In this document: piece by piece, positions 1,571 to 47,741 of the stretch
Layout of the letters: each line of letters begins with the position of its first letter
Position numbering within the stretch: the first letter of the stretch is position 1
NCBI GenBank assembly: GCA_002269645.1
Contig: NIVC01002121.1
Coordinates: forward strand, 1 to 64,000
Direction: 5' to 3'
Source: Macrostomum lignano
Taxonomy: Eukaryota
DNA: 64,000 bases
Notes under the pieces: model-generated
What the model saw: only the letters and a program-made list of their open reading frames with translations
Database searches by the model: none
Told to the model about the DNA's origin: nothing
Position numbers and translations under genes: made by a program

Positions 1571-3043
1571 ATGGCGCGGCGCAATCCAACGGTACACAGA
1601 GACATCAAAGAAACGGTCGGTACTTTCTCGATGGAGAAAGATTTTAACACATTTGTCGACCATTTTGACCTGGTATGTAGGGAATACAACCTACAAAATC
1701 CAGAGAAGGCACAGCTGCTGCCACCTCTTCTCCAAGGTACTGCGCGAGAAATTTACGGCAAGCTGGATGCGGCAACACAGCAAAATTATCCAGCACTAAT
1801 CATTCAACTGCGCGCGCATTTCAACCGTTGCGGCACAAACAGATCAGTGCTGCTGCACAAGTTGCATAACAGAAGGATGCAAGCAACAGAATCCTTCCTC
1901 GCCTTTGTGGACGATATCCGCCAGATAATTAAGGCACTGCATCAGCCACCGCTGCAAGCTGCGGACCAACCACCACTGGGAGCGGCAGAATTGGCCGCCA
2001 GAGAAAGACAACGATTGATGGATCGTGAACAAAACCTCATCCTGCACGTAATAAACAACGCACAGCCGTCACTTCGGGATAGACTTTTGCGTGAAAATAT
2101 CGAAACCGAAGAAGACCTTTTGCGTTGCGGAATGCAATGGGAAGCCAGTGCCCCATTAATGACGACAGGCAACAATGAAGTGCAGAAACTGACGCAGCAA
2201 CTAAACAAGTTAATGCAGCACCAGACAGCTGCTATCGCCGAACAAAAAAGACGAAATGAACAAGCCTCAGCCAGATGTTACTACTGCGGACAAGAAGGAC
2301 ATTATCAGATTAATTGTCCTCATTGGTCAACAAGATACGACAAGCCGCGACAGATATTCAACAATCAGAAGCCGCAGAAACCATGGCAGCACTATCAAAA
2401 TCGCCAACAACAAGGAATGAGACGCTTCGGAAATGATAGACGCTTCGGAAATAATGACCGCTCCGGAAATGATGGCCGCTTCGGAAACGAAGGCCGCTTC
2501 AGAAGTAATGGCTACAGGCCACGCAACGTCAGATACACACAAAGACAGCCGACGCAAGCAATGCCACGATACGCGAATGCCATCACGTACACACCGGAAA
2601 ATGAACAGCAAGAACAGCAAGTGTTCACAATTGACGACTTGGAAATGGACTTCACAGTCCCGGAACTTGACATCAGCTTGATCGAAAAGAAGACGACGCA
2701 CGAGGACAACACTGACAACACAGAAGAGACGAATGAAACCGAAATGATCAAATTAAAAGAGACCACCGGAGACAGCAGAGAAAACAGGAAGAAAGTAAAT
2801 CACAAGACAAGGGAGGAGGCGGAGAGCGACATCGGCAACGAAGAAAAGATGAAAACCGGCGAAGAAAACAACTATGAATCGACAACAGTGGATGACGACA
2901 AAACGAGCATGAAAGACAAAGAAATGAAAGAAGAAGAAGAATGTAGAAGTTACGGCAACGACCACGACTGCGAGGTGCGTGATGACACGAACGACTACCA
3001 AGCCGAAAGAGGAATGCAGGAAGAACGAGAGCGGAGAATCTAA
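1571..3043 (+). CDS. gag: Gag (capsid-like domain, CCHC knuckle CYYCGQEGHYQINC, RFGN repeats, acidic linker); separated from env-pol by a 1-bp deletion
   Basis: Ty3/gypsy capsid-type N-terminus and zinc knuckle. Copy 2 reads through this point (GAACTGAGA versus GAAC-GAGA at ~3026). Confidence 0.9.
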   Translation: MARRNPTVHRDIKETVGTFSMEKDFNTFVDHFDLVCREYNLQNPEKAQLLPPLLQGTAREIYGKLDAATQQNYPALIIQLRAHFNRCGTNRSVLLHKLHNRRMQATESFLAFVDDIRQIIKALHQPPLQAADQPPLGAAELAARERQRLMDREQNLILHVINNAQPSLRDRLLRENIETEEDLLRCGMQWEASAPLMTTGNNEVQKLTQQLNKLMQHQTAAIAEQKRRNEQASARCYYCGQEGHYQINCPHWSTRYDKPRQIFNNQKPQKPWQHYQNRQQQGMRRFGNDRRFGNNDRSGNDGRFGNEGRFRSNGYRPRNVRYTQRQPTQAMPRYANAITYTPENEQQEQQVFTIDDLEMDFTVPELDISLIEKKTTHEDNTDNTEETNETEMIKLKETTGDSRENRKKVNHKTREEAESDIGNEEKMKTGEENNYESTTVDDDKTSMKDKEMKEEEECRSYGNDHDCEVRDDTNDYQAERGMQEERERRI

Positions 3044-3090: not shown

Positions 3091-6000
3091 ATGGAAAAAG
3101 AACAGGTGAAAGAAAAGCCGAGTTCCGACAGCGACGAATGCTACGAGATCCGATACAAACGAAATGGTGAAGCCTATATTCAAACGGTCGACTACAAGAC
3201 AGAGAAAAGATACCAAACGCAATGGAGTGAAACAACGGAAACATCGGAAGAAGCCGCAGACGAAGATAATGAAATAACCAAAAAGCAAAGCGAATCAGAA
3301 GCCTTCCGCCTGGATCAGCCAATGGAACAACCGAAAGAATATGATGCGGACATGGAAGATAACGAATGGCGATCGCAGCCAATGCCAGCAAGGACAACGG
3401 CAAAATCCAAGAAGTGGAAAAACTGGCTATTCTGGATCATCGTGATACTACTGATAGCAGTAGTCGCCAAAGCAACGGCAACGGAAAAGCCAATGATTTG
3501 TCCAACGGATGCGCATATCCAACCGATGATCTACAAGATACCAACCGACATCAAATGCAGTTACTTCAAGACAAACCAGACAAAACCAAAGAAGATTACA
3601 CTCGATCTCTACAAGGCTAACATCAAGAAGCATCGACAACACGGGATAGTATGCTTCAGAGACAAGCACCTGGTGGAAAAAGTTTGGCGCGGACAATGGA
3701 ACCGGATCCGATTTAAACAACATGAGCTACATGTGTCGCACGCGGAATGCCTACAATGGAATCAAACACTATTTTCAAAGGATGGTGAACTGGAACCAGA
3801 TGAGAAGGTCGGCAACGCACAGCTGTTCAGAACAAAGAATTCAGCCAACGGTCGATATATTCACTTCTTCGGAAAATGGAAAGAATATATGGCACGCAAC
3901 AGCTACTTGATCAGAAATATTCCATTCTACTACAATCCGTACGAGAAAATGGAATCGTTACAGCTGCAACTAAGCGAATGTCGATACAGTGAAGGATGGT
4001 GTCCAACGCCGATTCTACGGAAGGAAGAACTACACAGTCTACCACTGAGTCCAACATATCATCAAGACTATCGATGGCAGATTGAGCACAGAGCACAATC
4101 ACACTATGAGGAACCGTACAAATCACGACAATACTTCTTCGCGTGGGAAGTTGAGCCGGAAATTGACTGCAAGCTTCAAAAGTATCACACAGTTGAAGGA
4201 GGACTACTGTCAAATACGTTTTTGGCAAAGTCAGGAGACTTGGCACTGACGTTTCAAAAGAAACCAGTCGAGCAAAAACTGAAATGCAAGGATACAGACA
4301 AGACACTATTCATCTCGGAACAAGAGATACCAGTCTACGTAAAGGATGAAGACAAACAAACCTTCTTGGCAATCATCAATGGAACGTATCAGCAACAAGA
4401 AAAACAGAATAGAAGACGACGTGACATCGAACGTCCCAAACTGGTGTCAAACCGGCTGTTGTCAGCAAAGATAACGGCTTTGGATCACAATCTACACAAC
4501 CAGTTAAACCACTTGCATCGAACACTGGTCCAGCTAACTTGCAAAATGCACGCAATCAACTTAAATTATGCCAGACAAAACTACTATGTCAACCCTACGA
4601 TGACTTTTCGTAAAATCACCGGAATGACGAACGTTTTGGCAGTTCCAATATACGAGCATCTGTTGATATACAAGTGCACGCCGATACAGCACTTTAACAT
4701 CTTGCCGTCAAACACGTCAACAACCTGCTACGATAAGCCAAGGATTGAAGCGTTCTACGAAGGAAAACGAATTCAGGGATTCTTGGACACGGTACACAAC
4801 ATCATCGTTGGCACCGCAATACCGAGACCTTGCACCACGGCAGTAAACTACTATCAACTGGACAATGCACTACACGTCATCAAAACAACTGGAACGACAG
4901 CAAACGTCACAGAACCGGAAGTAATCGTCGACGAAAACTACGACATGGAGGATTTGAAAATCCGATTCAACAGAACGAAGTATACGCCATTCGCCGATAT
5001 CCAACTTGACGAGATAACACCAGGATGGACGATCAACGACTTCTTGCAAGCGTTCATCACCCAACGCAAGATGATTCACCAGCTGTTCACAAGAAAGGAC
5101 AAAGGAACCGGGACAGGAAGATTTCCCGTCCTTGTTTCAATGGACAGCGCCATCAAATCATTTTGGACAAATAGCTTCTGGGAGCTGCTCAATGGAAGAG
5201 GCAGTCTCTATCAAGGATTCATCTTCTACGGTGCTTGCATTGTGTGGATTGTCACGGCAATCTTCATCATTTCATCGATCGTACGGTGCTTCAGTCAAAC
5301 TTGTCCAAGAGCTAAGAAGACAGTGAATGCCATAATGCAAAGAACGACAACGGAAAGCGACAACAGTTTAGAACTAACAGAAACTGCACATTGTGAGGTT
5401 CAAGGGCAACCGACACTAGCAACGCGGCTATATCCATCGATTCCGACAACACCAACGGCACCAAGGATACAACCACCCAACTATCAAGCAGAACAGCACG
5501 AGCCAAAATGGCCGGAAAACTACGTCTGTACGCTACACGCCGAGATTGGCAAAGCAATGGCTCAGGTCATTGTCAACAACTTGCCATGTCGAGCACTACT
5601 GGATTCAGGCAGCTCGATCACAGTCATCTCGCAACAATTATGCAACAAGCTACGACTCGCGGTACGACCAGCAGCAATCGCAGTTGCAGGAGCAGGAGGA
5701 CATTCACTCAACATCCTAGGAAAAGCAGATATCGACTTGAAAATTGCTAATAAACAGCTGACGGTCCCGACGTACATCATCGACAGACTACCAAACCAAG
5801 ACGTCATCGTTGGAATCGACACGTTCAAGCAGCTTCAACTACCATTGACCTTCGACTTCAACAAGCAAACGTTTAGGATCGACACGGTGGAGCAACCGCT
5901 GATCAACCAGATTCGAGTACTACCGAAAGTAACTCTGCAGCAAGATGTCATTATCCAGCCTGAAAGCGCATGCTGGGTCAGAGCGAAAACGACCAGCGCG

Positions 6001-9000
6001 GCAGATGAAGCAATGATATTTGATCCACACAGGAGAGTCACGGCAAAACATCAAATCATGATGCCTACGGCACTAGTGCTGGTTGCAAAGGATAAGCAAC
6101 TGCCAGTACAAATCTTCAACCCGAACACAGAAACGGTTCATCTACGACAAGGAATGTGCATCGGTCATCTCAACACCCAAGCATCGGTTATGCTGATTGA
6201 ACAAGCGACTCCACGACTAACAGAGGAAGAATTTCAAAAGAAGATCAATTTGGATGACAGCCCGATTACGGAACAGCAAAAGAGGAAAGTTCGACAGCTG
6301 TTGTGGAAGTACAACGAAGCCTTCTGCCATCATGATTACGACATCGGACGAGCCAAGGACATCAAACAGGAAATCAAACTTCTGCCGCACACGGAACCAA
6401 TTCAGTGCAAGCCGTACCCGATCGCCAAGCATCTGCAACAACACTTTGACGAAATCATCGATAAAATGCTAAAGCACGGCATCATCAGCAAAGCTATTTC
6501 GGCTTACTCCTCACCGTGCCTACTGGTACAGAAGAAGGAGACAAACGAAAGACGACTCGTATGCGACTTCAGACTGTTGAACAAGTACATACCGACGGAT
6601 CAGCAAAGCCTACCGAAGATCTCCGAACTACTAGCAAAGCTCAACACGGCAAAATTGTTCACGGTGTTCGACCTACGTCATGGATTTTGGCAAATTGAAA
6701 TCGAGAAAGAGTCACGACAGTACACGGCTTTCAAAACCTACAATGGACAAGTATACGAGTACAATCGATCGCCGATGGGACTTAGCAACAGCCCAGCAAC
6801 GATGAGTCGACTAACAGCATACATGCTAGCAGGATGCACGAACCTGCTGCACTATGTCGACGACATTTTAGCCTACGGAGAGGATTTCGAGCGACTCTAC
6901 GAAGCTACGGAGAAGGCCCTAGCGCTCATTCAACGCCAAGGTCTGAAGCTACAACCAACTAAATGCAAATTCTTCCGAGACAACGTGCGTTACCTGGGAC
7001 ATCAGGTGACAGCCAAAGGAATCTCACCGGACCCAGACAACGTGGAAAAGGTGAAGAAGTTTCCTACGCCAACCAGTATAACGAAGGTCCAATCATTCCT
7101 TGGACTTGCGCAATACTTCAGGAAGTTCTTACCTAACTTCGCAAAGACAGCAAAGCCACTGTACGACCTGCTCAAGTTCGACAAATGGAAGCAAGACAAC
7201 TGGACACAGAGACAACAGGAAAGTTTCGACGAAATCAAACGACAGCTGACATCAGACGCACTGCTACAGCATCCGGACTTCGACAAGCCCTTCATCATCG
7301 AGACAGACGCCTCAGGAACGGGACTCGGAGCAGTCCTACTACAGGAAACCGAGGACAAGAAGGAACGACCTATTGCCTACGTCAGTCGAGCACTCAAACC
7401 AAATGAAACAAAGTGGTCAGCTACGGAACGAGAGCTACTAGGAGTCTTGTTCGCCCTGCGACAGTTTCATTACTACATCTATGGTTCTCCAATACAGACG
7501 ATAGTACGCACGGATCATGCACCATTGACCTACGTCGTAACTACAAAAGGACAGACCAACAACCGACTCATCAGAATGACACTCAAGATCCAGGATTACA
7601 ACTACAAACTCGTCTACAAACCAGGAATTACCAACAAAGCCGCGGACGCCCTGTCAAGAGCCTATGAAGTCAACGCCATTCATCCAATCCCTAACATCAA
7701 GGAGTTGGTGGATGAAACCGAGCGCGACAACTTCTACCAAGCGGTTAAAGACGACGACAAGAACATCAAACTCAGTCCCATGGAACGAAAATTCCTACGC
7801 AAGCAACGACAACACCTAACAATCAATAAGTCACGGCTCTACTGGATGAGCGACAATAAACCCAAGATCTACATACCATATTCGTTTCGGCAAGCAATTC
7901 TCAACGAGCTACACGACAACCCACTCGCTGGACACCTGTCGGCAGCAAAGACCATCGCGAGAGTGGAACAATACTACTTTTGGCCAACTATGTACGGCGA
8001 CATCAAGCAGTATTGCAACAACTGCCATTCATGTGCTGCATCAAAGACAGGACGACGACAGAAACCGCAGCTACAGTCCATTCCGAAGTCGACTACAATG
8101 GACTGTCTAAGCATCGACATCACCGGACCGCTACCACCGAGCTGTCTCCAGGGCATCGCCTACACCTACATTCTAACCGCCTTGGATATCTTCTCGAAGT
8201 TTGCTATCGCCATACCGATACCGGACATCACAGCTCAGACAGTGGCAATGAGTTTCTTCAACGAAATCATTTGCAAGTACGGCACGCCGAAGAACCTCAC
8301 ATCGGACAACGGATCGCAGTTTACATCGCAACTGTTTCAGCAAGTCGTAAGGATTCTCAACATTACGCAGATCTACACATCGACCTACAATCCGAAGGCA
8401 AACATGGTTGAACGGTTTCACCGCAACCTGCACGAGATGATTACACATTTCGCGCACCAACAGCCGGAAGACTGGATCATCTACCTGCAATCTGTAACAA
8501 TGGCCTACAACAGCGCTATTCATCGATCAACGGACAATACGCCATTCTTCCTAATGTTTGGACGAGACTTCCAACCGCCGAATCTGCTCGCACAGCAATT
8601 GCTACCATCGCAGTACGTGGAAGTACCGACTTCCATTCAGAAATTCGTCACGCAACTACACCTCGCATGGAAGATCGCCAAGCACAACATTGACAACCAG
8701 GTGGCTCTGACCACCGGCAACGACGCGAGATCGACAACCCTGACGGCCGGCGACATCGTCTACCTACACTACCCGCCACAGCAGACGCATAAACATGCAC
8801 AGAAGTACAAAGGACCCTATCGAGTGGTCCAACTAACGTCACCAACAACGGCACGCCTGGCTAATGTACAAGATCCACATCAGCACCAGTTCTACGTACA
8901 CATTCATCGACTAAAGAAGATCAACACTGACACAGCGACGTTTCTACCGACATTAGACAACGCTGATCGCACGCGTTCAACGAACCGCCACATCGCGACG

Positions 9001-9066
9001 AAGCACGAGGAGACTCAAACGACAGATGTGAGCCAGCCACATGGCTACAACCTACGACCACGCTAG
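3091..9066 (+). CDS. pol: Env-Pol polyprotein: signal peptide, class III-like fusion glycoprotein, TM, then PR, RT, RNase H, integrase
   Basis: LLDSGS (5602), YVDD (6853), ETDASG, HHCC, D-D-E (DITG/DNG/VER), GPY, terminal YNLRPR. Upstream: hydrophobic WLFWIIVILLIAVVAKA, RRRR site at 4411, TM at ~5218-5283. Confidence 0.93.
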   Translation: MEKEQVKEKPSSDSDECYEIRYKRNGEAYIQTVDYKTEKRYQTQWSETTETSEEAADEDNEITKKQSESEAFRLDQPMEQPKEYDADMEDNEWRSQPMPARTTAKSKKWKNWLFWIIVILLIAVVAKATATEKPMICPTDAHIQPMIYKIPTDIKCSYFKTNQTKPKKITLDLYKANIKKHRQHGIVCFRDKHLVEKVWRGQWNRIRFKQHELHVSHAECLQWNQTLFSKDGELEPDEKVGNAQLFRTKNSANGRYIHFFGKWKEYMARNSYLIRNIPFYYNPYEKMESLQLQLSECRYSEGWCPTPILRKEELHSLPLSPTYHQDYRWQIEHRAQSHYEEPYKSRQYFFAWEVEPEIDCKLQKYHTVEGGLLSNTFLAKSGDLALTFQKKPVEQKLKCKDTDKTLFISEQEIPVYVKDEDKQTFLAIINGTYQQQEKQNRRRRDIERPKLVSNRLLSAKITALDHNLHNQLNHLHRTLVQLTCKMHAINLNYARQNYYVNPTMTFRKITGMTNVLAVPIYEHLLIYKCTPIQHFNILPSNTSTTCYDKPRIEAFYEGKRIQGFLDTVHNIIVGTAIPRPCTTAVNYYQLDNALHVIKTTGTTANVTEPEVIVDENYDMEDLKIRFNRTKYTPFADIQLDEITPGWTINDFLQAFITQRKMIHQLFTRKDKGTGTGRFPVLVSMDSAIKSFWTNSFWELLNGRGSLYQGFIFYGACIVWIVTAIFIISSIVRCFSQTCPRAKKTVNAIMQRTTTESDNSLELTETAHCEVQGQPTLATRLYPSIPTTPTAPRIQPPNYQAEQHEPKWPENYVCTLHAEIGKAMAQVIVNNLPCRALLDSGSSITVISQQLCNKLRLAVRPAAIAVAGAGGHSLNILGKADIDLKIANKQLTVPTYIIDRLPNQDVIVGIDTFKQLQLPLTFDFNKQTFRIDTVEQPLINQIRVLPKVTLQQDVIIQPESACWVRAKTTSAADEAMIFDPHRRVTAKHQIMMPTALVLVAKDKQLPVQIFNPNTETVHLRQGMCIGHLNTQASVMLIEQATPRLTEEEFQKKINLDDSPITEQQKRKVRQLLWKYNEAFCHHDYDIGRAKDIKQEIKLLPHTEPIQCKPYPIAKHLQQHFDEIIDKMLKHGIISKAISAYSSPCLLVQKKETNERRLVCDFRLLNKYIPTDQQSLPKISELLAKLNTAKLFTVFDLRHGFWQIEIEKESRQYTAFKTYNGQVYEYNRSPMGLSNSPATMSRLTAYMLAGCTNLLHYVDDILAYGEDFERLYEATEKALALIQRQGLKLQPTKCKFFRDNVRYLGHQVTAKGISPDPDNVEKVKKFPTPTSITKVQSFLGLAQYFRKFLPNFAKTAKPLYDLLKFDKWKQDNWTQRQQESFDEIKRQLTSDALLQHPDFDKPFIIETDASGTGLGAVLLQETEDKKERPIAYVSRALKPNETKWSATERELLGVLFALRQFHYYIYGSPIQTIVRTDHAPLTYVVTTKGQTNNRLIRMTLKIQDYNYKLVYKPGITNKAADALSRAYEVNAIHPIPNIKELVDETERDNFYQAVKDDDKNIKLSPMERKFLRKQRQHLTINKSRLYWMSDNKPKIYIPYSFRQAILNELHDNPLAGHLSAAKTIARVEQYYFWPTMYGDIKQYCNNCHSCAASKTGRRQKPQLQSIPKSTTMDCLSIDITGPLPPSCLQGIAYTYILTALDIFSKFAIAIPIPDITAQTVAMSFFNEIICKYGTPKNLTSDNGSQFTSQLFQQVVRILNITQIYTSTYNPKANMVERFHRNLHEMITHFAHQQPEDWIIYLQSVTMAYNSAIHRSTDNTPFFLMFGRDFQPPNLLAQQLLPSQYVEVPTSIQKFVTQLHLAWKIAKHNIDNQVALTTGNDARSTTLTAGDIVYLHYPPQQTHKHAQKYKGPYRVVQLTSPTTARLANVQDPHQHQFYVHIHRLKKINTDTATFLPTLDNADRTRSTNRHIATKHEETQTTDVSQPHGYNLRPR
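3424..5283 (+). other. env: Envelope glycoprotein domain (gB-like class III fusogen) embedded between gag and protease
   Basis: Signal peptide, Cys-rich ectodomain (CRYSEGWC), furin site, long amphipathic helix ending LTC..NP, CYDKP and RPCT motifs, C-terminal TM. Confidence 0.8.
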
Positions 9067-9080
9067 AGTTTAGAGAACAA

Positions 9081-9157
9081 CCCCGTGTAGTGACCGGGAT
9101 AAAGAATAGCACTACAGCTTCGCAAGCTTGTCGTAAAAGGCGACTAATCCGAGCGAC
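9081..9157 (+). ncRNA. Conserved structured cis RNA (H-type pseudoknot plus two hairpins) between the pol stop and RING-A
   Basis: Six copies (9081, 20607, 36253, 42695, 57254, 62859); compensatory TGTAGTG/CACTACA to TGTAGAG/CTCTACA change. Confidence 0.65.
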
Positions 9158-9186: not shown

Positions 9187-9855
9187 ATGGGCAACGCACT
9201 GTCGAAACAGGCGCCCCAGCCTCAGCAGCTATATGACTGCCCGATATGTTTAACTGATGACTTGGCTGTCAAGCCACCGACTATTTGCATCAATGGACAT
9301 AAAGTTTGCGGACAATGTTTAAGTGATTCACACTATATTCAGCCCTGGCAGAGTTGTCCCCTCTGTAGAGATAGTTTGCGACAATGTGCCTATTGTTATT
9401 CTTGGCGCACGTTTCAATATTGTAACCACCAACATTTTATTTGCATGCACTGTTTGAAGCAAACCGCTAGTAGGGGCATTATAGGATGCCCCTTATGTAA
9501 CAGTATGCCCCGCGAAAACACTTTTAAGAAATGGTGTCGGATTATACCTGACCCAGCGCGTTGTTTATCCGTTTACACTATGCACACCTTAACCGCTATG
9601 AGTATCGAACGGCGGCTGGAGTTTTGGCCTGTACCTCGCTTCGTTCAGCGGTCGCGACGACAGCTACTATTATATGCTCATAGAAATCAAGGATTTTTGC
9701 GTCATTTGTCACCCTTGGAGATTGAGCGACATTTGCGGCAGTTTTTGCATGACCACGAATCATTTCACTGGACGCTACACGTATACTGCCACGCGCTTAA
9801 ACGATTAGTGCTCTCACGTAGCTATTTTATTTGGCTTTTTAGGTCTCACCGATAG
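9187..9855 (+). CDS. RING-A: tandem C3HC4-type RING protein with N-terminal MGNALSK myristoylation motif
   Basis: CPIC..CINGHKVCGQC..CPLC and CAYC..CNHQHFICMHC..CPLC; conserved in several copies. Confidence 0.85.
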   Translation: MGNALSKQAPQPQQLYDCPICLTDDLAVKPPTICINGHKVCGQCLSDSHYIQPWQSCPLCRDSLRQCAYCYSWRTFQYCNHQHFICMHCLKQTASRGIIGCPLCNSMPRENTFKKWCRIIPDPARCLSVYTMHTLTAMSIERRLEFWPVPRFVQRSRRQLLLYAHRNQGFLRHLSPLEIERHLRQFLHDHESFHWTLHVYCHALKRLVLSRSYFIWLFRSHR

Positions 9856-9925
9856 AACATATGCTTGTTACGTATCTTGAATAATCCTCAATCGTTCTAA
9901 CTATACCTATACCTATCGCCCACAG

Positions 9926-10557
9926 ATGACCGAGATGGATACCTGCCCCTGCTGCCTCGAGGCACGGAGCCGATGCTCCCGACTTGTGAATGGGGGCACC
10001 AGGTGTGCTTCCCCTGCGACGAGCGGGCGCGAGAAATTGGCGACGTGACGATCCTTACCGCCTGCCCCGTCTGTCGCAGACCGCGGGTCCAATGTGCCCT
10101 TTGCGGCGACCAGCCCAATGTACGACTCTGTTCAAATCGGCATTGGGTGTGTTTCAGCTGTCTTCAGCGGTACGGTGCACGAGACATCATGACGTGCACC
10201 GTGTGCCTGGCTCCGCTGTCCAACACAGCATCCGTACTACTGGCACCGATGCTCGCCGTACCGGAGCTAACGCTGGCGGAGCCGGATGAGCTAACCCTGG
10301 AACAGCTGGCCGTCGCCGTACGAACGTGGCCATGGCCGCTTCAGCATCAGGCCGACTGGCGGTGGTTACTAGACATCGCCAGGACTATGGTGCGTACAGC
10401 AGAACCGCTTACGACCATAGAGGCCTATCTGCTTTTGCTGGAGCGGACCGAGGATCCGCGATTCACTAAGTTTCAGTCGCTGTACTGGGCAGTGGCATCC
10501 CTGGTGGCGCGAACCACGCATCAGGTGAGCAGCCTGCTCAGGACAAGCTTCGGCTGA
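9926..10557 (+). CDS. RING-B: tandem RING protein, paralogue of RING-A (1-bp deletion at ~9965 in this copy)
   Basis: CPCC..CEWGHQVCFPC..CPVC and CALC..CSNRHWVCFSC..CTVC; intact 210-aa version at 37098-37730. Confidence 0.8.
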
Positions 10558-10760: not shown

Positions 10761-10799
10761 AAAACTCGGGACGAGTTTTTTCGTAAAAAAGGGAGATTT
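10761..10799 (+). promoter_or_regulatory. Hairpin AAAACTCG-GGA-CGAGTTTT followed by polypurine tract AAAAAAGGGAG
   Basis: Directly precedes each family-G 3' LTR seen with its internal flank. Confidence 0.8.
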
Positions 10800-11663
10800 T
10801 GTAGAGTGTTCTACCTCCCGTTAAAAAAGGAAAAAAGAAGATAATCGTATAATACTACTATAAGTAAGTAAGTACACGCATGTGCGCCTAAGCTTTGAAT
10901 GAATCACGCTACCAGAAAAAGATGTTACCAGAATAATACGCCATGAGCCATTTTCCCCTTTTAGCGCAACACGTGAATTGTCATGATACTATTTTGGATC
11001 AAAAACTTGTCTATAAATACAAGCGATCTGAAGCGGTACCGGAGCCATTCTCCCCACGGAAGAGGAGCGCTCCGAAGAGGAAGCCTTAGGAGGACTTCCT
11101 GATCTACCAAGTCAATCGAGACTCGGTCGAGTTGTTGCGGTAAGCCTTCCTTATTTGCGCCCGTTGTGTTAGAGACGTCTCGCTCAAGTCTATTGAGACT
11201 TGAGTCTAATTGAGTCTGTTGAGACTCTTGAGTCTGTTTAGACTCCATTGGTTGCAGTCTCCAGAAGGACTGCCCCTGATAGATCTTAGAGGACTATCAG
11301 TGGTTTCCGGAGCTATACCTAGAGTGCATAGAGGCACTGCTAGAAGAAGGAGGCTTAATTTAGACCGCAGTTTGGCGCAGGGTACCCATTGTTGCTACGA
11401 GGCCTCTGATTGGTCCTGACGGAAGATACCGGCCGGAAGAACTTATCGGAAGTACAAGAGGAACCAGGACCAGAGCAACTGAAGAATCAAGGCGCCTGAT
11501 CTACGAGATCTACTGACAAGTTCCTAGCGAGAACTACTCAAGAAATTCAAATCCGGATTAAAGGTAATTGAATACCTTCGTTTGACTTACTGGGTTGCCT
11601 AGCTGTTGAGCTAGAAGTGATTGTTCCTTGATTATCGAAAGTCGGGTAATAAGGAACACATCA
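10800..11663 (+). repeat. 3' LTR, subtype A (864 bp)
   Basis: TGTAGAG...CATCA, preceded by PPT. Confidence 0.95.
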
Positions 11664-14450
11664 CTCGGACTCATCAACAACGCGAAAGCAAGGATCATTG
11701 TTCGTGAGGATTACTGTCCGAAGTTTCACAAGAGCAGACCTGTACCGTTTGCAATGAAGAAGCTTATTGAGGACGAACTCAATAACCTTGTCAACGAAGG
11801 GATCATATCAAAGCTGAGTTCATCAGATTGTGCTTCTCCCATTGTGCCAGTGCTGAAGAAAGATGGGAAATCAATCAGGATCTGCGCGGACTTCAAGAGG
11901 ACTATGAATCCACAGCTGGAAGTGGACAAGTATCCACTGCCTCGACAGGAGGAAATGTTTGCTACTTTGAATGGTGGGAAGTACTTTTCCAAGCTGGACA
12001 TTTCTCAAGCTTTTCTGCAGCTGGAGTTGGAAGAAAGCAGCAGAAAATTTACGACCATCAATACACACTTGGGATTGTATCAGTACAATCGACTAACAAT
12101 GGGCTTGGCTTCTGCTCCTGCTCAGTTCCAAGAAGCGATTGAGAAAATTCTCTGTGGACTGGAAGTTGTTGCTTACATCGATGATATTCTAATATCGGGA
12201 AGGTCACTCGAGGAACACGATCAGAAACTGCATAAAGTGTTGAAGACACTGCAATACAGGGGTGTCAGACTCAACAAGGACAAGTGCAAGTTTCGGCTGC
12301 AAAAAGTAGAATTCATGGGTCATATTATCAATAATGACGGACTGCACCCATCTCCTGACAAGGTAATTGCTGTGAGAAACGCACCGAATCCTACCAGTGT
12401 GTCCGAGGTTCGATCCTTGGTTGGACTTATTAACTACTATGGGAAATTCATACCCAACTCATCAACTGTTCTGGCGCCACTCAACCGACTCCTGAGAAAC
12501 GATGTGACATTCAGCTGGAGCAGTCAGTGCCAAGCTGCTTTGGACTCTGTGAAGTCAATTCTGACATCGGACCGGCTGCTGGTGCATTTCGACCCAAAGA
12601 AGCCGATCATCCTACACACTGATGCTTCGAAGTATGGGCTCGGATGTGTTCTGTCCCACACAATGCCAGGTGGTGCCGAGCTGCCTATCAGTTACGCATC
12701 AAGGACACTGTCACCAGCGGAGCAGAATTATTCTCAGCTGGAAAAAGAAGCGCTATCAATCATATTCGGGATCAAGAAGATCCATCAGTATCTATTCGGG
12801 AACAAGTTTATTTTGGTAACAGACCATAAGCCTCTAATTACTATTTTCGGAGAAAAGAAGGACATCCTGAGCATCGCAGCTAGCAGATTGCAACGTTGGG
12901 CAGTCTTGCTCTCTGCTCATCAGTACGAGATAAGATTTCGAAAGACAGAGGACCATGGCAACGCTGATGCGTTATCCAGGTTGCCATTGCCAAGTTCGAC
13001 GTCCCGAGTGGACAAAGTCATGGAACGTCGACTTCAAGAACTGCCTATCACCGCTGTCGAGATTCGTCGAGAGACAGCCAGGGATCCTATCCTGAGCAAG
13101 GTAATCAGGTTCTGCCAGAACGGTTGGCCGGAGAAATGTGAATTTGAGCTTGAGATATACCGTCAGAAAGGAAACGAACTCTGTCTTGAGCAGGGAGTCA
13201 TCTTCTGGGGTATACGCGCCATCATTCCATCTAGCCTCCAACACCAAGTTTTGGACCTGCTGCACGAAGGACACCCTGGGATTGTATCGATGAAATCGAT
13301 CGCTCGCCTGCACGTTTGGTTTCCGGGAATCGACCAACAGATTGAAAGAGCTGTGAAACAATGCAAGGGATGCGAACTGCAGCGAAGCAAACCACCAGAA
13401 TCTGCTGTTCACCCGTTGAGTTGGCCAGAAAAGCCATGGACGAGACTTCAGGCAGATTTTTTCGGACCGTGTTTCGGATTCAATTGGTTGGTAATCGTGG
13501 ATGCCACATCAAAATGGGTAGAGGTTTTTCCAATGAAAGTTTCCAGTGCCGCGAACACCATTCAACGCTTTCGAGAGACATTTGCTCGGTTTGGAATACC
13601 TCGACAGATACTGACCGACAATGGAAGCCAGTTTGCATCACAGGAGTTTGCTGAATTCACCAAGCGAAATAACATCCATCACATCTTCAGTGCTGTAGGA
13701 CATCCAAGAACCAACGGGCTCAGTGAGCGAATGGTTCAAACAGCCAAGAATGCGATCAGAGCAGGCATGAAGAGCCACGGTGATGCCATGCTGAGCCTGC
13801 ACAATTTCCTATTCCGCTATAGAAGCACGCCTCATAGCACGACGGGCAAGTCACCTGCCGAGATGATGCTTGCGTATGCAAGACGGACAAAGCTGGACTT
13901 CCTGAAGCCAGACACATACGGGAGAGTCCTGGATTCGCAAAGTAAGCAGATGATGCGCCGGGAACATATTCCTCACCGAGAGTTTCAGGCTGGAGATATA
14001 GTGCTAGCTCTTGATTTCAGGAGGGAAAAAGAAAACAAGTGGGCTCAAGCCAAAGTGTTGAAACAGACTGGGCCGCTGTCCTACCACGTGGAAGTCAACG
14101 GACGAATCTGGAAACGACACGTGGATCATCTGATCAAATCTGAAACCGAAGTTGTGCCCCAGCCACAGTGTGATTTCGACACAGAACTAACGCAAGCACA
14201 CAATGCCAAGAATAGCTACAAGTTGAAAAAGGATGCAAAAGAGGAAGCTGAATCGACGGGACCAAATCTAGAGCATCATGGTCAGACTGGCAAGTCTTCG
14301 CGGGCCATAGACAAAACTCGAAAGTTAGCCGCGTCATCAAGCTTCGATATCAAGCCAAAGGACGGCCAAGATGTCAAACAGCATCCGAACCAACGTGTTT
14401 TGCGTGACCGGTCAAAACTGAAGAAACCGGATTTTTTTGTTGCGAATTAA
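11664..14450 (+). CDS. pol: 5'-interrupted pol (RT-RH-IN) of an unrelated Mag/K02A2.6-like gypsy element
   Basis: RPVPFA, DKYPLP, YIDD, TDASKYGLG, LHEGHPG..C..C, TDNGSQF, ERMV. The true 5' boundary is the family-G LTR end. Confidence 0.9.
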   Translation, partial: LGLINNAKARIIVREDYCPKFHKSRPVPFAMKKLIEDELNNLVNEGIISKLSSSDCASPIVPVLKKDGKSIRICADFKRTMNPQLEVDKYPLPRQEEMFATLNGGKYFSKLDISQAFLQLELEESSRKFTTINTHLGLYQYNRLTMGLASAPAQFQEAIEKILCGLEVVAYIDDILISGRSLEEHDQKLHKVLKTLQYRGVRLNKDKCKFRLQKVEFMGHIINNDGLHPSPDKVIAVRNAPNPTSVSEVRSLVGLINYYGKFIPNSSTVLAPLNRLLRNDVTFSWSSQCQAALDSVKSILTSDRLLVHFDPKKPIILHTDASKYGLGCVLSHTMPGGAELPISYASRTLSPAEQNYSQLEKEALSIIFGIKKIHQYLFGNKFILVTDHKPLITIFGEKKDILSIAASRLQRWAVLLSAHQYEIRFRKTEDHGNADALSRLPLPSSTSRVDKVMERRLQELPITAVEIRRETARDPILSKVIRFCQNGWPEKCEFELEIYRQKGNELCLEQGVIFWGIRAIIPSSLQHQVLDLLHEGHPGIVSMKSIARLHVWFPGIDQQIERAVKQCKGCELQRSKPPESAVHPLSWPEKPWTRLQADFFGPCFGFNWLVIVDATSKWVEVFPMKVSSAANTIQRFRETFARFGIPRQILTDNGSQFASQEFAEFTKRNNIHHIFSAVGHPRTNGLSERMVQTAKNAIRAGMKSHGDAMLSLHNFLFRYRSTPHSTTGKSPAEMMLAYARRTKLDFLKPDTYGRVLDSQSKQMMRREHIPHREFQAGDIVLALDFRREKENKWAQAKVLKQTGPLSYHVEVNGRIWKRHVDHLIKSETEVVPQPQCDFDTELTQAHNAKNSYKLKKDAKEEAESTGPNLEHHGQTGKSSRAIDKTRKLAASSSFDIKPKDGQDVKQHPNQRVLRDRSKLKKPDFFVAN

Positions 14451-20708: not shown

Positions 20709-21377
20709 ATGGGCAACGCACTGTCAAAACAGGCGTTCCAACCTCAGCAGCGATATGACTGTCCAATTTGTTTAACTGATGACTAGGCTGTCAAGCCACC
20801 GATTATCTGTGTAAATGGACATCGCATATGCGGACAATGTTTAAGTAACGCTCATTATATTCAACCCTGGCAAAATTGCCCGTTATGTAGAAGTAGTCTT
20901 AGACAGTGTGACTATTGTTACTCCTGGCGCACATTTCAATTTTGTAGACAGGAACATTTTATTTGTATGCAATGCTTTAAAAGAACAACCAAACGAGGCA
21001 TCGTCGGGTGTCCCGTTTGTAACAACATACCGTACGGACGCGCCTTCAGGCAGTGGTGTCGCATACAACCCGAGCCTATGCGTATTTTAACCCTCGATAC
21101 TATTTGCACCTTACCCGCTATTACTATTGAGCAACGACTGGAGTTTTGGCCAGTCCCGCGCTCAGCTCAGAGATCGCGCTATGAATTGTTTTTATACGCA
21201 CATGAAAATCAAGGTCTACTGCGTCATATGGCACCTCTTGCTATAGATAGGCTCCTTAGGCAGTTTTTAAGTGCACAAAATGCGTTTCACTGGTCCTTGC
21301 GAATCTATTGTTACGCGCTTCAACGGCTTATTTTGTCACGCAGCAATTTTATATGGCTTTTGCGATATCCCCAGTAA
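20709..21377 (+). pseudogene. RING-A, disrupted (in-frame TAG and frameshift)
   Basis: MGNALSK start; GAC TAG where others have GAC TTG. Confidence 0.8.
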
Positions 21378-21439
21378 CATATTCAACTGTTAACGCCACA
21401 AGTCCTCAGGTTAATAACAATAATGTATGTTACCCGCAG

Positions 21440-22075
21440 ATGGACAACTACAACACCTGCCCCTGCTGTCTGGAAGTACGGGAGCCGATGCTCCCGACAT
21501 GTGAATGGGGGCACCAAGTGTGCTTCCCCTGCGACCAGCGGGCTCGAGAGGTAAACGGCGAAGTAACAATGCTGTTCGCCTGTCCGGTCTGCCGCAGGCC
21601 GAGGGTCCTTTGTGCCATCTGCGGCGACCAGCCTAACATCCAAGCCTGTGCAAGCAGGCACTGGCTGTGTTTTACATGTTTGCAGCGTTACGGTGCACGT
21701 GACATTCGCACGTGTACCGTCTGCCTGGCCCAGCTGACCGGCCTCGCGTCCCTCCTGCTCGATCAAATGTCAGTGATACCGGAGTTGGCGCTGAAAGAAC
21801 CAGACGCGCTTACGCTGGAACAACTGGCGGTCGCCGTCAGGTCTTGGCCATGGCCGTCCCGGCACTTGGCCGCCTGGCAGCACCTATTGGATATTGCCAG
21901 GACAATGGTCAGGGATATGGTAGCGACCACAGCGATAGACTGCTACCTGATCCTGCTGGAGCGGACGGAGGACCCGAGGTTCCTGTGGTTTCAGCCACTG
22001 TTCTGGGCGGTGGCCTGCTTGGTTGCCCGAGCTGCACAGCAAGTCACACACACGCTACAGATCAGTTTTGGCTGA
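21440..22075 (+). CDS. RING-B, intact diverged allele
   Basis: CAG|ATG start; tandem RING plus C-terminal WPWP helical domain. Confidence 0.8.
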   Translation: MDNYNTCPCCLEVREPMLPTCEWGHQVCFPCDQRAREVNGEVTMLFACPVCRRPRVLCAICGDQPNIQACASRHWLCFTCLQRYGARDIRTCTVCLAQLTGLASLLLDQMSVIPELALKEPDALTLEQLAVAVRSWPWPSRHLAAWQHLLDIARTMVRDMVATTAIDCYLILLERTEDPRFLWFQPLFWAVACLVARAAQQVTHTLQISFG

Positions 22076-36358: not shown

Positions 36359-37027
36359 ATGGGCAACGCACTGTCGAAACAGGCACCCCAACCTCAGCAG
36401 CTATATGACTGCCCGAAATGTTTAACTGATGACTTGGCTGTCAAGCCACCGACTATTTGCATCAACGAACATAAAGTTTGCGGACAATGTTTAAGCGATT
36501 CACATCATATTCAGCCATGGCAGAATTGTCCCCTCTGTAGAGATAGTTTGCGACAATGTGCCTATTGTTTTTCTTGGCGCACGTTTCAATATTGTAACCA
36601 CCAACATTTTATTTGCATGCACTGTTTGAAGCAAACCGCTAGTAGGGGCATTATAGGATGCCCCTTATGTAACAGTATGCCCCGCGAAAGCACTTTTAAG
36701 AAATGGTGTCGTATTATACCTGACCCAGCGCGTTGTTTATCAGTTTACACTATGCACACCTTAACCGCTATGAATATCGAACGACGGCTGGAGTTTTGGC
36801 CAGTACCTCGCTTCGTTCAGCGGTCGCGACGACAGCTACTATTATATGCTCATAGAAATCAAGGATTTTTGCGTCATATGTCACCCTTGGAGATTGAGCG
36901 ACATTTGCGGCAGTTTTTGCATGACCATGAATCATTTCACTGGACGCGACGCGTATACTGCCACGCGCTTAAACGATTAGTGCTCTCACGTAGCTATTTT
37001 ATTTGGCTTTTTAGGTCTCACCGATAG
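36359..37027 (+). CDS. RING-A
   Basis: Intact, near-identical to 9187-9855. Confidence 0.85.
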   Translation: MGNALSKQAPQPQQLYDCPKCLTDDLAVKPPTICINEHKVCGQCLSDSHHIQPWQNCPLCRDSLRQCAYCFSWRTFQYCNHQHFICMHCLKQTASRGIIGCPLCNSMPRESTFKKWCRIIPDPARCLSVYTMHTLTAMNIERRLEFWPVPRFVQRSRRQLLLYAHRNQGFLRHMSPLEIERHLRQFLHDHESFHWTRRVYCHALKRLVLSRSYFIWLFRSHR

Positions 37028-37097
37028 AACATATGCTTGTTACGTAACTTGAATAATCCTCAATCGTTCTAACTATACCTATACCTATCGCCCACAG

Positions 37098-37730
37098 ATG
37101 ACCGAGATGGATACCTGCCCTTGCTGCCTCGAGGCACGGGAGCCGATGCTCCCGAATTGTGAATGGGGGCACCAGGTGTGCTTCCCCTGCGACGAGCGGG
37201 CGCGAGAAATTGGCGACGTGACGATCCTTACCGCCTGCCCAGTCTGTCGCAGACCGCGGGTCCAATGTGCCCTTTGCGGCGACCAGCCCAATGTACGACT
37301 CTGTTCAAATCGGCATTGGGTGTGTTTCAGCTGTCTTCAGCGGTACGGTGCACGAGACATCATGACGTGCACCGTGTGCCTGGCTCCGCTGTCCAACACA
37401 GCGTCCGTACTACTGGCGCCGATGCTCGCCGTACCGGAGCTAACGCTGGCGGAGCCGGATGAGCTAACCCTGGAACAGCTGGCCGTCGCCGTACGAACGT
37501 GGCCATGGCCGCTTCAGCATCAGGCCGACTGGCGGTGGTTACTAGACATCGCCAGGACTATGGTGCGTACAGCAGAACCGCTTACGACCATAGAGGCCTA
37601 TCTGCTTTTGCTGGAGCGGACCGAGGATCCGCGATTCACTAAGTTTCAGTCGCTGTACTGGGCAGTGGCATCCCTGGTGGCGCGAACCACGCATCAGGTG
37701 AGCAGCCTGCTCAGGACAAGCTTCGGCTGA
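37098..37730 (+). CDS. RING-B (210 aa, intact)
   Basis: CAG|ATG start, tandem RING. Confidence 0.85.
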   Translation: MTEMDTCPCCLEAREPMLPNCEWGHQVCFPCDERAREIGDVTILTACPVCRRPRVQCALCGDQPNVRLCSNRHWVCFSCLQRYGARDIMTCTVCLAPLSNTASVLLAPMLAVPELTLAEPDELTLEQLAVAVRTWPWPLQHQADWRWLLDIARTMVRTAEPLTTIEAYLLLLERTEDPRFTKFQSLYWAVASLVARTTHQVSSLLRTSFG

Positions 37731-40828: not shown

Positions 40829-43800
40829 AACAAGAAAGTTTCGACGAAATCAAACGACAGCTGACATCAGACAAACTGCTACAGCATCCGGACTTCGACA
40901 AACCCTTAATTGAGACAGACGCTTCAGGAACGGGACTCGGAGCAGTCCTACTACAGGAAACCGAAGACAAGAAGGAACGACCTATTGCCTACGTCAGTCG
41001 AGCACTCAAAACAAATGAAACAAAGTGGTCAGCTACGGAACGAGAGCTACTAGGAGTCTTGTTCCCCCTGCGACAGTTTCATTACTACATCTATGGTTCT
41101 CCAATACAGACGATAGCACGCACGGATCATGCACCATTAACCTACGTCGTAACTACGAAAGGACAGACCAACAACCGACTCATCAGGATGACACTCAAGA
41201 TCCAGGATTACAACTACAAACTCGTCTACAAACCAGGAATTACCAACAAAGCCGCGGACGCTCTGTCAAGAGCCTACGAAGTCAACGCCATTCATCCAAT
41301 TCCTAACATCAAAAGAGTTGATGGATGAAACGGAAAACGACAACTTCTACAAGGCGGTCAAAACCTACGACAAAAACATCAAACTCAATCCCATGGAACG
41401 AAAATTCCTACGCAAGCAACGACAACACCTAACAATCAATAAGTCACGGCTCTACTGGATGAGCGACAATAAACCCAAGATCTACGTGCCATATTCGTTT
41501 CGGCAAGCAATTCTCAACGAGCTGCACGACAACCCACTCGCTGGACACCTGTCGGCAGCAAAGACCATCGCGAGAGTGGAACAATATTACTTTTGGCCAA
41601 CAATGTACGGCGACATAAAGCAGTATTGCAACAACTGCCATTCATGCGCAGCATCAAAGACAGGACGACGACAGAAACCGCAGCTACAGTCCATTCCGAA
41701 GTCGACCAAAATTGACTGTCTAAGCATTGACATCACCGGACCGCTACCACCGAGCTGTCTCCAGGGCATCGCCTACACCTACATCCTAACCGCCTTGGAC
41801 ATCTTCTCGAAGTTTGCTATCGCCATACCGATACCGGAAATCACAGCCCAGACGGTGGCAATGAGCTTTTTCAACGACATCATTTGCAAGTACGGCACGC
41901 CGAAGAACCTCACATCGGACAACGGATCGCAGTTTACGTCTCAACTGTTTCAGCAAGTCGTAAAGATTCTCAACATCACGCAAATCTACACGTCAACGTA
42001 CAACCCGAAGGCTAATATGGTGGAAAGGTTTCACCGCAACCTGCACGAGATGATTACACATTTCGCGCACCAACAGCCGGAAGACTGGATCATCTACCTG
42101 CAATCTGTAACAATGGCCTACAACAGCGCTATTCATCGATCAACGGACAACACGCCATTCTTCCTAATGTTTGGACGAGACTTCCAGCCGCCAAATTTGC
42201 TCGCACAGCAATTACTACCATCGCAGTACGTGGAAGTACCGACTTCCATTCAAAAATTCGTCACGCAACTACACCTTGCATGGAAGATCGCCAAGCACAA
42301 TATTGACAACCAGGTGGCTCTGACCACCGGCAACGACGCGAGATCGACAACCCTGACGGCCGGCGATATCGTCTACCTGCACTACCCGCCACAACAGACG
42401 CATAAACATGCACAGAAGTACAAAGGACCCTATCGAGTGGTCCAACTAACGTCACCAACAACGGCACGCCTGGCTAATGTACAAGATCCACATCAGCACC
42501 AATTCTACGTACACATTCATCGACTAAAGAAGATCAGTACCGACAAAGCAACGTTTCTACCGTCACTGGACAACGCTGATCGCACGCGATCAACGAACCG
42601 CCACATCGCGACGAAGCACGAGGAGACTCAAACGACAGACGTGAGCCAGCCGCACGGCTACAACCTACGACCACGCTAAAGTTTCAAGAACAAACCCGTG
42701 TAGAGACCGGGTCAGAATAGCTCTACAGCTTCGCAAGCTTGTCGTAAGAGGCGACTAATCCGAGCGACTTAAGACTACAAGACTACAAGTGGCGACAATT
42801 ATGGGCAACGCACTGTCGAAACAGGCGCCCCAGCCTCAGCAGCTATATGACTGGCCGGTATGTTTAGCTGATGACTTGGCTGTCAAGCCACCGACTATTT
42901 GCATCAATGAACACAAAGTTTGCGGACAATGTTTAAGCGATTCTCATTATATTCAGCCATGGCAGAATTGTCCCCTCTGTAGAAGTATTCTACGACAGTG
43001 CGCCTATTGTAATTCTTGGCGCACGTTTCAATACTGTAACCAAGAACATTTTATTTGCATGCACTGTTTGAAGCAAACCGCTAGTAGGGGCCTTATAGGA
43101 TGCCCCTTATGTAATAGTATGCCCCGCGAAAGCACCTTTAAGAAATGGTGTCGCATTACACCGGAACCAACGCGTTGCTTATCAGTTTATGATATGCACA
43201 CTTTAACCGCCATAAGTATCGAGCGGCGACTGGAGTTTTGGCCAGTACCTCGCTTCGTCCGGCGGTCGCGTAGACAATTACTACTATACGCTCATAACAA
43301 TCAAGGAATTTTGCGTCATATGTCACCTGTGAAGATTGAACGACATTTCCGACAATTTTTGCACGCTCATAATGCGTTTCACTGGACATTACATGTATAC
43401 TGCCACGTGCTTAAACGATTAGTTCTCTCACGTAGTTGTTTCATATGGCTTTTCCGGTCTCGCCAGTAGAACATATACTTGTTACGTATCTCGAATAATC
43501 CTCAATCGTTCTAACTACAACTACACCTATCGCCCACAGATGGCCGAGATGGATACCTGTCCCTGCTGCCTCGAGGCACGGGAGCCGAGGCTCCCGACTT
43601 GTGAATGGGGGCACCAGGTGTGCTTCCCCTGCGACGAACGGGCTCGAGCAATTGGCGAGGTGACGATTCTTTCCGCCTGCCCGGTCTGTCGCAGGCCGCG
43701 GGTCCAATGTGCCCTTTGCGGTGACCAGCCCAATGTCCAAGTCTGTACGAATCGGCATTGGGTGTGTTTCAGCTGTCTTCAGCGGTACGGGGCACGTGAC

Positions 43801-46852: not shown

Positions 46853-47741
46853 ATGAACATATTCAGGCAAATGCGCATCGACATCCAGGGCCTTACTGCT
46901 TTTGATGATAATCCGTTATTCAACTACCTGTGTGAAACGTACTATTGCCCACATCGTCGTAATTTCATTTATTATCACCCCTCCTATCTTTCGCCCTTCC
47001 CGTTTCCTCGAACTGCCATTCCAGGTTTCCTTGCTTTACGATCTATTCAACTGTAACGGACGTCTCTCTCTCACCTCCGATTTCGCCTTTACCATCACTG
47101 AGTCCTACCTACGCCACAAATCCAACTCCTGCCAATGTTCTATCCCGGGACAGATAGATAATATTCTATTCCACATCGAGGGCCTCCATACCCCACCCCT
47201 GCGAGGAACCTTTAAGTCTGCTATCGTCGAGCTAGCATTCCACCGCCAGGAGTTCGAGGTGCTCTTCCGCACCCTGCGTTGTGTCAATTTCCACACCGCC
47301 AATCCTCTCAACTACGAATATCTCCGCCGAGTGTACCGTAACAAACTCGATGACATGGAATGTGAACGATATGATCAATTGCTCCAGAGCTTTGTTCCCC
47401 CCGTTTCCGACTCACCCTCGAGCCTGTTTAACCTTGCCTTACACCAACTCCGCCACCACTTCTGGTCGACCTGGACTCGCCATCGCAGCAGTCCTAGGGG
47501 TCAGGCCATTGAAGCCTACTTCCTCACCCTTCCCCGGTTTCATCGGGAACACATTGTTGGTCACCCTGAGTTCGTCGACGACCCCTGTTTTGACGTCAGC
47601 GATTCCCCTTGCCCCAATCTCGAAGGCAAATCACTCGTGTCGCGGAAAACGGTTCACCCCGCGACTACCGCTGGCTGGTCCGACGCTTGGATTGCCTCCG
47701 CATACGGTGGTCGCCTTAATTACCTTATTCCCTCCCCCTAA
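46853..47741 (+). pseudogene. ORF-X, unknown ~290-aa protein (frameshifted near 47020) of another repeat family
   Basis: Homologues at 59854-61081 and a tail at ~53440 with protein-level conservation (AYGGRLNYLIP / AHGGRLSYIIP). Confidence 0.55.

Follow-up and report, generated by a model that had tools for sequence, protein, structure and literature searches.

A Ty3/gypsy retroelement of the flatworm Macrostomum lignano carries, between pol and the 3' LTR, a cassette of paralogous genes whose products each contain two RING fingers. Judged from their sequences, these genes are selected, likely spliced and predicted to encode ubiquitin ligases, with host defence proteins, acted on in trans, as the likely substrates; for this composite reading, we put the chances at about even. 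The evidence comes from the window, that is, the whole stretch of 64,000 nucleotides analyzed here, and from related copies and proteins; the parts of the first element and the cassettes, given by their coordinates in the window, are on the forward (+) strand.

The host retroelement

The window is a nested cluster of copies of one LTR element family. Its first copy, a Ty3/gypsy element, extends from a 5' LTR (1-854; the first bases precede the window start, and there is a TATA box at 203) to a 3' LTR of 864 nt (10800-11663). The two LTRs are 99.8% identical over 856 columns, and this copy is therefore young. The gypsy features found in it are the protease-RT-RNase H-integrase order, the LTRs, a primer binding site that follows the LTR end (857-868), and, immediately 5' of the 3' LTR, a polypurine tract (10785-10796) recognized by inspection of the sequence. 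The polyprotein begins with gag, which includes a CCHC knuckle (1571-3043), and continues with env, protease, RT, RNase H and integrase (3091-9066); a break between 3043 and 3091 interrupts the frame in the first copy, and in the copy at 28751, gag and env share one uninterrupted frame. In the env-pol region, which is 98% identical to one Macrostomum lignano protein, the Pfam domains RVT_1, RT_RNaseH, rve and Asp_protease score above their cut-offs. The env, of the class III fusogen-like type, matches PF24664 with an E-value of 3.6e-5, below the Pfam cut-off, and has hydrophobic segments at each end and a basic cleavage-like site. Pol stops at 9066, and RING-A and RING-B lie in the stretch from there to the 3' LTR.

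The LTR and the primer binding site match a catalogue entry typed ENV_HSV, Mlig_errantivirus_2 (PMC13524379), which, as far as the entry goes, comes from the same species and has an 864-nt LTR, the identical 12-mer in the primer binding site and a gB-type env. Given the match in LTR length and primer binding site, the element is already catalogued. Flatworm errantiviruses are described in the accessible text of the same paper as GAG-ENV-POL elements with a gB-type env (Chary and Hayashi, eLife, PMC13524379).

The window also contains another gypsy pol 3' of the first element's 3' LTR (11754-14450; RT, RNase H and integrase, 898 aa), a second repeated ORF family just 3' of LTR copies (46905-47741 and 59854-61081; weak Pfam match to TetR_C_42, E 0.14-0.2), and short LTR-to-RING fragments in many tandem repeats (38772-63990).

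Tandem-RING proteins with an unclassified helical domain

RING-A is intact in the first copy (9187-9855) and encodes 222 aa, with RING1 at residues 18-61, RING2 at 67-104, a helical domain at ~135-220, and a myristoylation-like start. RING-B (9926-10557), likewise composed of RING1, RING2 and the helical domain, is frameshifted in this copy; its end at 10557 was placed correctly in the sequence-only reading, and its start has to be moved to 9926, because a one-base frameshift near 9965 leaves the listed ORF (9973-10557) without the first CxxC. An intact RING-B copy is found at 37098-37730. As initially proposed, each ORF encodes two RING fingers, both of the C3HC4 type with eight zinc ligands in RING spacing: in RING-A, C-x2-C-x12-C-x3-H-x2-C-x2-C-x12-C-x2-C for RING1 (C18-C60) and C-x2-C-x8-C-x3-H-x2-C-x2-C-x11-C-x2-C for RING2 (C67-C104). 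The suspected paralogy of RING-A and RING-B is borne out by 25% identity over 195 columns (E 1e-13). Across 22 diverse proteins of the family, 14 of the 16 zinc ligands are invariant and the other two are at least 90% conserved, and the Trp-Pro motif of the helical domain is invariant. RING-A and RING-B are each built of two C3HC4 fingers with six residues between them, followed by a linker and the helical domain. The difference in base composition noted earlier is real (RING-A, T 0.30; RING-B, G+C 0.61; pol, A 0.33), and the GC3 contrast extends to the other subfamilies checked, with low values in A (0.30-0.45) and high ones in B (0.61-0.71).

In spacing and sequence, the first finger comes closest to that of SIAH/Sina, as had been suggested from the spacing: the best PDB profile match is the RING of SIAH1 (E 7e-6, RING1), and Sina_RING is detected in 19 of the 22 members at E <= 0.05, although in the three window proteins scanned, Pfam RING scores, Sina_RING included, are below the curated cut-offs. 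For RING2, the profile matches are weaker (RINGs of BRE1, MAT1, TRIM56 and RNF213, E 0.003-0.02). SIAH proteins combine a RING with zinc fingers and a TRAF-like beta-sandwich that serves as the substrate domain, whereas the proteins described here have a second RING in place of the zinc fingers and an all-helical domain in place of the beta-sandwich. The AlphaFold2 models are confident (pLDDT 88.0 and 89.3, pTM 0.79), and in both, the C-terminal domain is entirely helical (pLDDT ~90), with no TRAF-like beta-sandwich. Foldseek searches of PDB and BFVD gave no match at E <= 0.001; what the structural comparisons retrieve are single RINGs, with no clear match to the helical part, and the best VIA Z scores are 4.9 and 5.5. 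Thus, the fold of the helical domain, searched within whole-protein models, is best treated as unclassified, and we do not claim that it is new. Viral RING E3 ligases, such as herpesvirus ICP0, baculovirus PE38 and the RINGs of giant viruses, are deployed against host defence; they are among the single-RING fold matches, but none of these reaches E <= 0.001, and the confident matches span about one RING.

In established RING biochemistry, a Pro and the "linchpin" Arg are involved in the binding and activation of the E2. In RING1, Pro after ligand 7, Arg after ligand 8 and a hydrophobic residue after ligand 2 are present in all 22 proteins, whereas in RING2, Arg is found at the linchpin position in none of the 22 and Pro in 14; in the window-type RING-B, a Cys is located between ligands 1 and 2, where most RINGs have Ile or Val (4 of the 22). 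RING1 is therefore likely the E2-activating finger and RING2 likely is not, and it appears quite probable that both proteins have E3 ligase activity, a prediction that derives from these conserved positions. An RBR ligase contains an IBR domain between RING1 and RING2; here, with only 6 residues separating the fingers, there is no room for one. Prediction of an A-B complex in a run that did not use alignments scored 0.00, that is, gave no answer.

The cassette family and its relatives

The window contains six further cassettes in various states of preservation. Both genes are intact, as ORFs, at 36359-37730. The diverged cassettes at 20709-22075 and 62957-64000 each have one stop in RING-A; RING-B is intact in the former, with the start at 21440, and extends past the window end in the latter. 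At 42801-44177, RING-A is open with the first Cys replaced and RING-B is frameshifted; at 54680-55657, only the 3' part of RING-A and a frameshifted RING-B are present. The cassette at 57386-58291, of the MGNAQSR type, is broken; an 83-nt inverted repeat, 99% complementary, interrupts its RING-A copy (57568-57795).

A search of genome G000 yielded at least 151 matches each for RING-A and RING-B, with 150 scored of the 246 and 211 candidates, respectively. In the regions inspected, there are two-gene cassettes (window, C240, C583 and C301 types) and three-gene cassettes (C1063, C1405, C391, C4009 and C272 types). The A-type gene is always the first in the cassettes inspected, the A types form one well-supported clade, and the A/B duplication is deep in the tree. 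The claim that the pair is retained across diverged subfamilies holds for the genes, but not for the MG motif at the start of RING-A. Compared with the window copy, the C240 copy is 99.5% identical in the RT and only 74% identical in RING-A, and the dS of RING-A is 1.6 vs 0.54 in the adjacent integrase, a pattern that suggests a possible exchange of cassettes between near-identical backbones. Full-length cassettes are concentrated on a few contigs with tandem fragments, possibly piRNA-cluster-like or heterochromatic. Near some RING cassettes (L031:6409-13737 and L046-L047), there are unrelated ORFs, capsid-like and DNA-polymerase-like, which by eye resemble those of Polintons/Mavericks.

Among 1.84 billion protein representatives, 141 matched at E <= 0.001, and coverage of the whole protein was found in only four: P0008, which is built of the RING-cassette family's own pieces, and three Logan proteins. 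The latter share 30-41% identity with the G000 sequences that they match best, so the RING family likely exists in other genomes. For two distant relatives, the top G000 matches are the RING-A and RING-B places already found, part of which were inspected as DNA. A word-indexed search for proteins of similar length found nothing for RING-A (82 candidates) or alignment A3 (1465 candidates); in ESM Atlas, RING-A retrieved nothing beyond generic viral RING clusters, and the helical part of RING-B had no usable match; and no relative turned up in the viral and metagenome contigs scanned. Neither a close characterised relative nor a host source gene was found in the protein, structure and genome searches, and by this measure the tandem-RING plus helical architecture is without a characterised relative.

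Purifying selection on the RING genes

We estimated dN/dS by the Nei-Gojobori method among natural open copies, leaving out saturated pairs. The values for RING-A are 0.05-0.28 in the 19 pairs, of 21, for which dS could be estimated, and those for RING-B are 0.14-0.30 in 14 of the 15 pairs; the exception among the latter is a pair with 98% identity, whose value of 0.53 is based on 8 changes. For close pairs of the other paralogues, the range is 0.15-0.31. Binomial P values in the three pairs tested range from 2e-5 to 2e-19. Constraint extends over the five segments of RING-A (pN/pS 0.20-0.35 in each), and there is no sign of positive selection in any RING-A domain at the resolution of segments. 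In the adjacent integrase, dN/dS is 0.03-0.13 (a range that excludes L033, whose ORF fuses env with integrase); thus, the RING genes are constrained and yet change faster. Values near 1 had been named at the outset as speaking against selected accessory genes; those obtained are mostly 0.1-0.3, so that, on the substitution patterns, the RING genes are functional accessory genes under purifying selection.

Putative splice signals and expression

ORFs located 3' of pol need messages of their own. The conserved sequence G|GTAAGC (325-336), with the junction at 330|331, is a putative major splice donor and ends a first exon that is free of ATG in every LTR copy listed; the donor G|GT(A/G)AGC is present 80-160 nt past the TATA anchor in 43 of the 48 distinct LTR copies. 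The putative RING-A acceptor (9100-9150, with the AG ending at 9117) belongs to a CAG|CT that all 17 distinct A starts have 61-98 nt 5' of their ATG, the interval being free of other ATGs, and the putative RING-B acceptor (9905-9925) is directly 5' of the start codon. Of the 29 distinct B starts, 20 have a CAG immediately next to the ATG, and 24 have one within 6 nt, compared with 4 of 127 ATGs in gag-pol; the five B starts with no adjacent CAG are all in third-position genes. Two RING starts without a nearby Met were left out of these counts. As the copies are related, neither these counts nor those of truncated copies below represent independent events.

One contig of run X5, which we only guess to be an RNA run and in which read depth cannot rank genes, joins exactly 330 to a sequence that resembles the LTR around its AG site at 617, and in the public gene model P0008, a prediction, an LTR exon ends at the donor and is joined directly to the RING-B start. 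Among the contigs listed from four runs, there are no joins of the donor to a RING acceptor, so that splicing of the RING messages is what we infer; two contigs run across the RING-B acceptor unspliced. Taken together with the conserved signals, RNA from the LTR promoter is probably spliced from 330 to alternative acceptors, yielding one message per RING gene.

Alternatively, spliced-leader (SL) trans-splicing, which is used by about 30% of the genes of this host, where operons also exist (as given in the accessible part of PMC8629364), could possibly supply the RING messages. We rank this possibility lower because a conserved cis donor is already present upstream, no leader was detected among the loose contig ends listed, and the distances from the A acceptor to the ATG occur in all three frames, even though the leader ends in ATG. 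The RING-A acceptor is followed by a conserved short inverted repeat (9127-9146), present in 16 of the 17 A-type starts, including diverged subfamilies and deleted copies; this could be a cis-acting RNA element.

Loss of the cassette and elements without pol

Among the matches listed, two truncated patterns account for 23 rows and 20 rows, respectively, vs 25 near-full-length rows, with classes assigned by match pattern; 5 truncated rows of the first pattern and 2 of the second were inspected. Of the 25 near-full-length rows in this set, 19 are without stops, and 19 are on five multi-copy contigs, whereas the truncated ones are dispersed, 23 rows on 22 contigs and 20 rows on 20 contigs. The assembly of this species is reported as redundant in the accessible text of PMC12801592, and copy counts are therefore rough. 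In the first deletion class, an open MG-RING1-RING2 frame is left, without the helical domain and RING-B (all 5 examined); in the second, RING-A is broken and RING-B is absent (2 examined). Five whole deleted elements have LTRs that are 99.2-100% alike and are 10.58-10.71 kb long vs ~11.67 kb for the full form, and one cassette-deleted element has an open env-pol frame of 2346 aa. From these structures, cassette-deleted copies have spread twice, by two different deletions. The listed span of Mlig_errantivirus_2, 10,591 nt, fits the cassette-deleted form of the first class (10,578-10,623 nt) rather than the ~11.67-kb form, and this may explain how the cassette escaped notice; neither "RING" nor "ubiquitin" appears in the paper's main text or in 7 of its supplements (PMC13524379).

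The reverse situation is also found. In C301, C525 and C2869, a 1008-aa ORF joins gag, env and the integrase end, without protease and RT, and both RING genes are open in all three. Elements of this kind, at L093:2766-9639, L094:2222-9095 and L033, are non-autonomous and 6.87 kb long, and consist of the 1008-aa frame, in which Env is represented only in part, and the two open RING genes; 4-bp target duplications are present, and the LTRs of L093 and L094 are 99.8-99.9% identical. As far as these variants can tell, the cassette is dispensable in cis. The excess of truncated copies fits a costly or self-limiting cassette just as well as it fits action in trans.

Myristoylation-like starts and late motifs

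The starts MGNALSK at 9187 and MGNAQSR at 57386 are both present, as reported from the sequence alone. However, the MG motif is limited to 10 of the 17 distinct A-type starts, all from the window subfamily, and is absent from the other 7, from all B starts and from the outside relative P0009. Within the 10 MG starts, Gly2, Asn3, Ala4 and Ser6 are kept in all, Ser6 on four different codons. Of the membrane-anchored E3 system envisaged in the sequence-only reading, the E3 part is backed by the E2-activating hallmarks of RING1, whereas anchoring finds no support across the family, the motif being confined to one subfamily. The proposed assistance in budding is weakened: the 22 RING proteins contain no PTAP or PPxY and only one loose, weak match to YPxL, and the polyprotein carries late motifs of its own: of 8 ORFs examined, all contain PPxY and 6 contain PTAP. 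In the first copy, YPSI, PTAP and PPNY, which we take to be ESCRT late-domain motif types, cluster between the Env transmembrane segment and protease (5431-5484), and this suggests that ESCRT-driven budding may be encoded in the single polyprotein.

Arenavirus Z has one RING and C-terminal late motifs. The resemblance to the RING-cassette proteins, a myristoylation motif plus a RING, applies to the window subfamily only, and the cassette proteins differ in that they have a second RING as well as a helical domain and lack PTAP and PPxY. Given the patchy MG motif and the lack of late motifs, a Z-like role is not the core function of the RING family. Accessory ORFs in gypsy elements have a precedent in sORF1 and sORF2 of the MDG1 group, which, in the accessible text of PMC11952523, are under purifying selection and have MGxxxS/T in 4 of 6 cases; unlike the RING genes, these are small, located upstream of gag and without RINGs, and sORF2 is a transmembrane, fusogen-like protein (PMC11952523).

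Possible functions of the RING proteins

An anti-defence role, one of the two proposed from the sequence alone, is our best guess for the RING proteins; the putative splice signals, the three-gene cassettes and the cassette-deleted lineages had gone unnoticed in that reading. Under this scenario, RNA from the LTR promoter would be spliced from 330 to alternative acceptors, as in complex retroviruses; RING1 would recruit and activate E2~ubiquitin, RING2 would be structural or bind partners, and the helical domain would pick the substrate. The substrates would be host proteins that restrict the element, in which case the products would be a shared good that deleted copies can borrow; myristoylation would be a later addition that sends RING-A to membranes in the window subfamily only. 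Genes that are conserved and yet fast-changing, duplicated, apparently exchanged, probably separately expressed and droppable fit a host-aimed trans factor better than a structural part. A wider proposition is that the layout of complex retroviruses evolved independently in this invertebrate retrotransposon lineage, with a single LTR donor feeding an expandable cassette of tandem-RING ligases that combine a catalytic finger, a non-catalytic finger and an unclassified helical domain for targeting, and that destroy host silencing or immunity factors in trans, and with cassette-less cheaters and pol-less helpers coexisting; we advance this tentatively, with the chances somewhat against it.

The same catalytic signature would be expected of ligases that act on the element's own products, in the turnover of Env or Gag, in trafficking, or in self-limitation of copy number, and among the matches listed, the cassette-less lineages are the most dispersed and full-length rows are clustered. 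We nevertheless consider this unlikely: the RING genes diverge much faster than the accompanying pol and stay open in elements without protease and RT, and the presence of several paralogues suggests several targets. That RING-A is instead a myristoylated matrix protein or budding helper, which like arenavirus Z takes part in particle assembly with Env, seems to us quite unlikely. The invariance of Gly2, Asn3, Ala4 and Ser6 in the MG starts, the presence of env in the element, and the open MG start and both RINGs in the commonest deletion class (5 of the 5 examined) are all compatible with such a role, but the A elements without the motif (7 of 17 starts, along with all B types) have the same gag-env-pol layout, the late motifs are in the polyprotein and not in the RING proteins, and the second deleted lineage spread with RING-A broken.

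The RING proteins could also be non-catalytic zinc-finger adaptors, either E2 decoys or regulators of nucleic acids or export like Rev or the CERV of Cer1. RING2 has no catalytic Arg, a conserved inverted repeat is located 5' of RING-A, and small spliced regulators are reported to be typical of complex retroelements (PMC10309623). Yet the Pro and Arg of RING1 are kept across paralogues with ~25% identity, which indicates E2 activation, and no cis-essential role is apparent, making this option decidedly unlikely. Lastly, passive carriage of recently captured host genes without a function in the element is very improbable. The base composition unlike that of pol and the frequent loss of the cassette could be explained in this way, but dN/dS far below 1 largely refutes it, the duplication that gave rise to A and B lies deep in the tree, there is conservation of the splice-like signals, and the distant relatives lead back, in G000, to the known RING-A and RING-B places.

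Novelty and implications

No description of the cassette was found in the searchable literature, with Repbase, the 2020 LTR classification of the species, subscription papers and bioRxiv supplements outside this scope. In PMC12801592, "ring" occurs 0 times in the main text, and the 150 matches in the supplement are in a transcript-annotation table. The closest parallel among flatworm gypsy elements is the giant planarian Burro/GYPSM1, for which the accessible text of PMC6431247 describes additional domains (AIR1, MATH/TRAF, BIR and SUMO-like) with links to ubiquitination and apoptosis, and proposes that these meddle with the host; these domains, however, are mostly inside a ~5,000-aa polyprotein, and a 3' cassette of paralogous tandem-RING genes is not described there (PMC6431247). 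Thus, the RING cassette is apparently undescribed; the element kind is known, and prior annotation is possible.

HIV and other retroviruses have restriction factors destroyed by ligases that they recruit from the host. A retroelement that encodes a RING-ligase family of its own would, if this is true, represent a different solution. To our knowledge, few counter-defence proteins of animal transposons are known. Because Macrostomum lignano is a laboratory model, is amenable to RNAi and transgenesis and has a described piRNA pathway in stem cells (PMC4604429 and PMC12801592, accessible parts), the substrates of the RING proteins would name host factors that limit the element, and natural intact, deleted and helper-like variants are available side by side for comparison.
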